Origin: Escherichia coli
GTDB taxonomy: Bacteria > Pseudomonadota > Gammaproteobacteria > Enterobacterales > Enterobacteriaceae
DNA length: 47,554 bases
Assembly: GCF_003334385.1 (NCBI RefSeq)
Contig: NZ_QOWN01000034.1
Strand: one strand, 5' to 3'
This document shows, piece by piece, positions 45,444-47,190 of this stretch. Every line of letters starts with the position of its first letter. The first letter of the stretch is position 1. The position numbers and the translations under genes were made by a program. Under the pieces are notes generated by a model. The model had not been told where the DNA came from and made no database searches. It saw only the letters and a program-made list of their open reading frames with translations.

Positions 45444-47030
45444 TTAATGCTCGCGGGTCTGGTGGAACTGAACGTCCGGATAACGTTCCTGCGCCAGGCG
45501 CAGGTTGACCATGCTGGTAGCGATGTAAGCGAGGTTATCGCCGCCATCAAGCGCCAGTTGGCTTTCGTTCTTACGCTTGAACTCTTCGAATTTCTTCGCG
45601 TCTGCACATTCTACCCAGCGGGCGGTGGCAACGTTGACTGATTCATATACTGCTTCAACGTTGTATTCGCTCTTCAGGCGCGATACCACCACATCAAACT
45701 GCAGCACACCAACCGCACCAACGATCAGATCGTTGTTGGAGATTGGACGGAACACCTGCACCGCGCCCTCTTCGGAAAGCTGTACCAGCCCTTTGAGCAG
45801 CTGTTTTTGCTTCAGCGGATCTTTCAGGCGGATGCGACGGAACAGTTCTGGCGCGAAGTTCGGAATACCGGTGAACTTCATCATCTCACCCTGGGTAAAG
45901 GTGTCGCCAATCTGAATGGTGCCGTGGTTGTGCAGGCCGAGGATATCGCCCGGATATGCTTCTTCAACGTGCGAACGGTCACCTGCCATAAAGGTCAGCG
46001 CGTCGGAGATCACCACATCTTTCGCAGTGCGCACCTGGCGCAGCTTCATGCCTTTTTCATATTTACCGGATACCACGCGCATAAACGCCACGCGGTCGCG
46101 GTGTTTCGGGTCCATGTTGGCCTGAATTTTAAATACGAAGCCGGTAAATTTGTCTTCGCTCGCCTCTACGGTACGGGTATCAGTCTGACGCGGCATCGGC
46201 GCAGGAGCCCACTCCACCAGGCCATCCAGCATATGATCGACACCGAAGTTACCCAGCGCAGTACCGAAGAATACCGGAGTGATTTCGCCCGCAAGGAACA
46301 GCTCTTTGTCGAACTCATTAGACGCGCCTTTCACCAGTTCCAGTTCGTCACGCAGCTGCTGTGCCAGATCTTCACCGACCGCTGCATCGAGATCCGGGTT
46401 ATTCAGCCCTTTAACAATGCGGACTTCCTGAATGGTGTGGCCTTTACCGCTCTGATAGAGATAGGTTTCGTCTTTATAAAGGTGGTAAACGCCTTTAAAC
46501 AGCTTGCCGCAGCCGATCGGCCAGGTGATCGGTGCGCAGCCGATTTTCAGCTCGTTCTCAACTTCATCGAGCAGTTCCATCGGGTCGCGGATATCACGGT
46601 CAAGTTTGTTCATAAAGGTGAGGATCGGCGTGTCGCGCAGACGGGTAACTTCCATCAGCTTGCGGGTACGATCTTCAACACCTTTTGCGGCGTCGATAAC
46701 CATCAGACAGCAGTCCACCGCCGTCAGGGTACGATAGGTATCTTCCGAGAAGTCTTCGTGCCCCGGGGTGTCGAGCAGGTTAACCAGGCAATCGTGATAC
46801 GGAAACTGCATCACAGACGTAGTAATGGAGATCCCACGCTGCTTTTCCATCTCCATCCAGTCCGACTTAGCGTGCTGGTTAGAGCCACGGCCTTTTACTG
46901 TACCGGCGGTCTGAATGGCCTGTCCGAACAGCAGCACCTTCTCGGTGATGGTAGTCTTACCGGCGTCCGGGTGAGAAATAATTGCAAAGGTTCTTCTTTT
47001 CGCTACCTCTGCGGCCAAAAGGCTTGTCAT
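45444..47030 (-). CDS. prfC: Peptide chain release factor 3, 528 aa (N-terminal ~17 codons atypical)
   Basis: GTPase G-domain [24 protein letters not shown], and the rest co-linear with RF3; begins [13 protein letters not shown] with tandem AGA codons. Confidence 0.93.
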
Positions 47031-47190
47031 AATTGTTGTCTCTTTGATTATGTACAATCATATGTACAAAGAAAAATTCATGCCGCTGATTGTACATTTT
47101 GGAGGTATCAGAGCATAGCAGAACATGATCAGTAGGTGTATTTGTAGCCAAAGAACATTTGTACATGCAGCAATCTTTGCTCTATTGACA

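Follow-up and report, generated by a model that had tools for sequence, protein, structure and literature searches.

What is the origin of the atypical start of prfC (RF3) in this stretch of Escherichia coli DNA, where the first codons differ from those of K-12 and include two rare arginine codons in a row? Throughout, the window denotes the whole stretch of 47,554 nucleotides that was analyzed; prfC lies close to its right-hand end. Our analysis indicates that positions 46969-47554 almost certainly represent attR, one end of a temperate lambdoid prophage belonging to the "prfC-type" formed by cdtI, Stx1a and Stx2c phages.

The chimeric prfC gene

45444-47030, minus strand: chimeric prfC (RF3) coding sequence, 528 aa, from the open reading frame, its translation and TIGR00503
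46992-46997, minus strand: tandem rare Arg codons AGA AGA (codons 12-13), in the place of CGC CGC in the native gene

The coding sequence runs on the minus strand from an ATG at 47030-47028 to a stop at 45444. Its first codons, ATG ACA AGC CTT TTG GCC GCA GAG GTA GCG AAA AGA AGA, are exactly those quoted in the preliminary description of this DNA, and they continue as ACC TTT GCA ATT ATT TCT CAC CCG GAC. In K-12 MG1655, codons 1-12 read ATG ACG TTG TCT CCT TAT TTG CAA GAG GTG GCG AAG and codons 13-22 read CGC CGC ACT TTT GCC ATT ATT TCT CAC CCG, giving the N-terminus MTLSPYLQEVAKRR. The E. coli RF3 start given for comparison in that description was therefore the right one, and the first 60 nt of the K-12 gene, which might have proved identical to those of the window, are not. 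Host sequence restarts at ATT ATT TCT CAC CC, which is codon 17 here and codon 18 in K-12, matching the earlier impression that the gene looks native from about codon 18. Codons 1-16 are phage-derived, and everything from codon 17 onward is derived from the host.

Past the breakpoint, the gene is 98% identical to that of K-12, with 30 differences in 1539 nt and a single amino-acid change. The protein is one residue shorter than native RF3, and only residues 2-7 are new. Its alignment with a solved E. coli RF3 chain (2h5e_A) begins only at residue 8 of that chain; the solved chains have the K-12 N-terminus, and the window protein is identical to them from native residue 9 (60 residues tested). 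Against the NCBIfam prfC equivalog model TIGR00503, it scored 1089.7 bits over residues 6-528, where the curated cut-off is 466.95 bits with a full-length match. The same 1587-nt coding sequence is represented in RefSeq by WP_000202563.1, annotated in several strains of diverse lineages.

The tandem AGA codons had been singled out as unusual for E. coli, and the counts agree. Among the 31 Arg codons of prfC, AGA occurs twice, both times in this pair, and it is absent from K-12 prfC. Across the 37 long open reading frames of the window (12,913 codons), AGA accounts for 19 of 755 Arg codons (2.5%), and the pair in prfC is the single in-frame tandem of AGA or AGG. A phage-borne tRNA-Arg was considered as an explanation and set aside, as the matching prophage carries no annotated tRNA gene.

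The attachment site and the prophage behind it

46969-46982, no strand assigned: 14-bp att core ATTATTTCTCACCC (prfC sense), the attR crossover region; the same 14-mer occurs in attB, attP and attL
46983-47030, minus strand: phage-supplied replacement 5' coding segment of 16 codons, identical in the cdtI attP and its variants
47031-47170, no strand assigned: phage P arm of attR with the replacement RBS region, recognized by TGTACA(A) repeats and conservation
47191-47206 and 47219-47234, plus strand: two LexA-box-like sites (CTG-N10-CAG) from a pattern search, upstream of the DinI-like gene
47250-47498, plus strand: phage DinI-like gene, 82 aa, the outermost prophage gene at this end (PHROG 189)
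47510-47529, plus strand: terminator-like hairpin and T-run after the DinI-like gene

Alignment with K-12, the approach suggested earlier for locating a breakpoint, placed it at the 14-bp core ATTATTTCTCACCC, positions 46969-46982. This core encodes I-I-S-H-P, the start of the GTPase G1 motif (native prfC codons 18-22), a sequence that hosts would probably find hard to change. It is common to K-12 attB, the attP of phage cdtI (NC_009514), the attL of E. coli JNEC-KY204 (locus L002, 29178-29191) and the window, and in the GenBank record of a Stx1a phage (LC727891), 14 bp at the same place are labelled as a "duplication due to insertion". At the window junction, the left half of the cdtI attP meets the right half of K-12 attB, and attL combines the other two halves; the four sites around the core fit the Campbell model of integration. 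Beyond the ATG, on its right, the window lacks the K-12 yjjG-prfC spacer and has instead 220 bp of A+T-rich DNA followed by the DinI-like gene. From 46983 to its end, the window is phage DNA, first the P arm and then this gene, and it reaches 524 bp into the element. The junction is attR, because int lies at the opposite end. The proposal that an integrative element had entered the 5' end of prfC is thus borne out by att halves that meet at the core and by a reciprocal junction in related genomes.

These genomes show what lies beyond the window. A 655-bp region around the junction has counterparts of 100% identity in two complete E. coli genomes, JNEC-KY204 and DETEC-S792. In each of them, the DinI-like gene and int bound a complete lambdoid prophage, with genes for tail fibres, J, tape measure, capsid, terminase, lysis, Q and cI/cro, among others. 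In related genomes, this prophage of ~49 kb separates prfC from yjjG. At its far end in JNEC-KY204, ~49 kb away, lie a tyrosine integrase gene (L002 27736-28947; PHROG 1, E 6e-75), a 69-nt feature annotated as "incomplete hypothetical protein" (L002 29174-29242) and yjjG. This 69-nt stretch is in fact the start of native prfC (ATG ACG TTG TCT ... ATT ATT TCT CAC CC): the stub at attL retains the native promoter, the ATG and 22 codons, and is fused to phage DNA in which the frame stops two codons later. The integrase of the matching prophage is 99% identical to that of the inducible phage cdtI. Integrase and phage genes had been expected to the right of the junction together with a second copy of it. 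In the related genomes, phage genes are indeed there and the core is present at both ends of the ~49-kb prophage; tail and moron genes come first, however, and the integrase is ~49 kb off. As a separate observation, the JNEC-KY204 prophage encodes a 595-aa "ATP-binding protein" between int and the early genes (L002 25652-27439), a position typical of an accessory or defence gene.

The chromosomal backbone of the window differs from the two identical-junction genomes by 2-3%, about one difference per 45 nt, up to position 46884, whereas 46885-47554 shows no differences. A backbone ~2% apart joined to an identical end is what a mobile segment shared between different chromosomal backgrounds would produce. 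DETEC-S792 carries a toxin-antitoxin pair of nadS and RelE/ParE between ettA and nadR (L010 1585-2203) and JNEC-KY204 does not; at 28233-28517, the alignment of the window with DETEC-S792 is broken, with a partial match, and the window appears to differ too. Between yjjW and yjjV (41376-42166), a 101-bp unit is repeated in tandem 7.8 times, and each copy matches Rfam naRNA4 (RF02564, REP-derived). Judged from the lengths of matching stretches, K-12 has ~4 copies, JNEC-KY204 ~5 and DETEC-S792 ~2, which makes this a copy-number-variable repeat locus. At 33962-34250, the window lacks hipH (yjjJ, 1.3 kb), which K-12 has between deoD and lplA, and retains only ~290 bp; related genomes have a short helix-turn-helix protein annotated there, between lplA and deoD.

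The outermost prophage gene matched PHROG 189, "RecA filament binding protein DinI", with an E value of 3e-28. Against the NCBIfam DinI model (NF007893), its product reached 72.7 bits where the equivalog cut-off is 111; it is DinI-like and not an orthologue of chromosomal DinI, and the matching genomes annotate the same gene as a DinI-like family protein. With two LexA-box-like sites upstream, the gene looks SOS-regulated, and it is transcribed away from prfC. These sites overlap a TTGACA hexamer at ~47185.

The replacement 5' end together with the P arm was found in 700 of 5426 complete E. coli genomes (12.9%), including UTI89 and O55:H7 CB9615. The int-side arm occurs in ~700 complete E. coli genomes, a DinI-like gene occupies the same position in 479, and 75 phage records match the arm. 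An exact 45-mer of the replacement segment was present in one genome, that of E. coli, among ~100,000 species-representative genomes, in a scan by exact matching that would miss diverged versions. Two of the 704 places that match the P arm and replacement 5' end are on plasmid-labelled records, which could be mis-assigned contigs or an extrachromosomal form of the phage. In E. coli SCU-306, the junction (L016 2380-2760) matches at 89% with many indels of 1-4 nt, and the PGAP annotation gives dinI as well as prfC as pseudogenes. We considered this case as a second attP type or as real decay and rejected both, since a junction riddled with indels between two pseudogenes is probably a long-read assembly error.

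Could something other than a resident phage account for the junction? That it is an ordinary prfC allele, a homologous-recombination patch from another species or an assembly artefact has practically no probability: phage DNA stands where the K-12 spacer should be, the junction recurs in the 700 independent complete genomes, and the only species representative with the 45-mer is itself E. coli. Only the unusual start itself speaks for any of the three versions, and all are refuted. ICEs of the SXT/R391 type also target these prfC codons and bring a 5' end of their own, yet there is hardly any chance that one of them made this junction, and comparison of the arm, the N-terminus and the neighbouring genes refutes it. 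The arm is 100% identical to the cdtI attP and unlike that of R997; the N-terminus contributed by the ICE is MANQDFLNEINKRR, and the gene beside its attR is setR, not dinI; in the matching genomes, lambdoid tail and head genes adjoin the junction. A junction of phage origin might still be the leftover of a decayed prophage, an attR followed by hardly any functional phage DNA, or none; prophage decay is common, and since the window stops at 47554, nothing past the DinI-like gene can be seen. We consider this rather improbable, as both closest matches carry full-length lambdoid prophages and the genome counts for the P arm and the int-side arm are essentially equal (700 against ~700). The rest of the lambdoid prophage is presumably present in the window's own genome.

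The replacement segment and the expression of the rebuilt gene

In the phage attP, a prfC-like sequence, ...AATT ATG plus 16 codons, stands immediately upstream of the core; the suggestion that the element itself provides a substitute 5' end thus holds, extending to an RBS, an ATG and 16 codons. These codons are identical in the attP of free phage cdtI and in all six prophage and phage variants sampled. Over the EVAKRRTFA stretch (27 nt, codons 8-16), the phage copy and K-12 differ at 8 nt, and all eight differences are synonymous, an outcome seen in none of 200,000 random sets of eight changes. The 148 nt at 46983-47130, comprising the codons and 100 nt upstream, show 99.3-100% identity across phage variants in which the neighbouring dinI-like gene is only 80-85% identical, and they occur at an identity of at least 99% in 690 of 701 matching E. 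coli records. With synonymous-only divergence in the overlap and near-invariance beside a diverged dinI-like gene, the replacement segment looks selected.

The P arm contains TGTACA(A) repeats at 47051, 47063, 47091 and 47160, so that four of the seven TGTACA hexamers of the window fall within 115 bp (47051-47165). Four more lie in the int-side arm (L002 28957-29013), and seven of the eight repeats fit ATGTACAA, an extended motif judged by eye from the flanking bases. We regard the TGTACAA repeats as candidate arm-type sites of the integrase. As a side observation, SXT/R391 ICEs, with an Int only 38% identical, have GTGTACAAA repeats in both att arms (L011 4470-5100; L012/L013 junction). The recurrence of the repeats suggests that a TGTACAA-type arm-site motif may be conserved across the whole prfC-targeting Int cluster; we found no description of a shared arm-site motif for this cluster in the literature surveyed.

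The junction forms as follows. The phage attP consists of the P arm with its TGTACAA repeats, the prfC-like RBS, ATG and 16 codons, and the 14-bp core. A crossover inside the core separates prfC from its own promoter, RBS and 22 initial codons, which stay behind at attL, next to int and yjjG. The same event joins the phage 5' segment in frame to prfC codon 18 onward, rebuilding a full-length RF3 of 528 aa.

Whether the rebuilt gene works is a question on which two further readings differ from ours. According to one, the phage junction is real and the rebuilt prfC is silent or poorly translated, so that integration amounts to a knock-down or knock-out of RF3, a loss that would be tolerated since prfC is non-essential. 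Several features are in its favor: the native promoter and RBS are gone, the P arm lacks a strong predicted promoter, and the tandem rare AGA codons sit near the start. A standard scan of the prfC strand upstream of the chimeric ATG returned no sigma-70 promoter, and the best candidate in a relaxed scan was TTTTCT-17-CATAAT, with 8 of 12 matches; the SD/RBS is weak, and the AGA pair comes early in the reading frame. In the literature, Ogura 2007 left expression open and calls prfC non-essential, and Bobay 2013 counts the gene as "disrupted". Nevertheless, a silent gene seems to us unlikely. In the phage, an ATG is retained in frame together with 16 codons whose overlap with the host gene has diverged only synonymously, the segment is nearly invariant in 700 genomes, the downstream reading frame is intact, one identical protein (WP_000202563.1) occurs in diverse lineages, and SXT/R391 independently keeps the same design. 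Because the divergence is synonymous-only and the segment near-invariant, the rebuilt prfC appears meant to work, and it is probably both expressed and functional.

The other reading holds that the phage 5' region re-tunes prfC besides preserving it, and we doubt it to a similar degree. A new and weak promoter and RBS, the putative Int-binding repeats that overlap the upstream region and the AGA pair could lower RF3 levels, and RF3 could come to depend on the state of the phage or on how much tRNA-Arg(UCU) is available. In that case, the ~13% of E. coli with such prophages would differ systematically in termination and in post-peptidyl-transfer quality control, and the near-invariance of the 148 nt would reflect selection on a regulatory function. 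Given the AGA pair and the lack of an evident promoter, a modest regulatory effect is conceivable, although it appears unlikely.

Comparison with known prfC-targeting elements

A prfC 5' end replaced by a phage is already known and is an ordinary feature. The gene had been named earlier as a reported prophage insertion site in pathogenic E. coli, and the literature indeed places both Stx and Cdt-I phages there. An O103 strain carries a Stx1 phage in prfC that changes the N-terminus of RF-3 and removes its RBS and promoter (Ogura 2007, PMC2323221); Stx1a and Stx2c phages of CC119 integrate at prfC (PMC10132054); and prfC is the integration site of the inducible Cdt-I phage, whose Int falls with IntSXT into one prfC-targeting cluster (Smyshlyaev 2021). 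The prophage of the window shares the P arm, the replacement 5' end and the core with these lambdoid phages (Cdt-I of Asakura 2007, O103 Stx1, CC119 Stx1a/Stx2c), at 99.3-100% identity over 46983-47130. It differs from them in its DinI-like allele, which is 80-85% identical to theirs and 100% identical only to that of a few genomes, and its close matches carry YadA-like and tail-fibre genes at this end, not cdt.

These relationships matter mostly for annotation. The atypical RF3 N-terminus is neither a sequencing error nor an odd allele; in the form of WP_000202563.1 (528 aa), it reliably marks a lambdoid prophage integrated in prfC, and prophages of this type often carry Stx1a, Stx2c or Cdt-I. 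Nor should prfC be scored as "disrupted", as in the survey of Bobay 2013, given that its 5' end is replaced and its reading frame intact. The question of RF3 expression in lysogens, raised by Ogura 2007, concerns about one in eight sequenced E. coli.

The SXT/R391 elements (Hochhut & Waldor 1999) were represented in our comparison by two sequences, the ICE of P. mirabilis H63 and R997 in its circular record. The ICEs and the phage are alike in their target codons, in the design of a replacement 5' end and in the arm motif. At the attL of H63, the native Proteus prfC start runs to ATT ATT TCG CAC CC TGA TGC and is fused to ICE DNA. R997 supplies its own ATG and ~17 codons, and its replacement N-terminus MANQDFLNEINKRR is unlike that of the phage. 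SXT/R391 elements are conjugative, whereas the prfC-type element is a tailed phage, and their host range is broad, while the exact phage arm was found only in E. coli in the exact 45-mer scan. SXT is said also to supply a promoter for prfC. The family is defined by an Int ~99% identical to IntSXT; the SXT/R391 Int and that of the matching prophage are 38% identical over their full length, which means that the prfC phage is not a member of SXT/R391, though it works like one.

A related solution is known from the other end of a gene. Phage 21 and e14 integrate at the 3' end of icd, where their attP holds a diverged gene end that keeps the reading frame intact. In those cases, the 3' end is replaced and the promoter and start are untouched; here, the prfC phage replaces the 5' end, including promoter, RBS and start codon.
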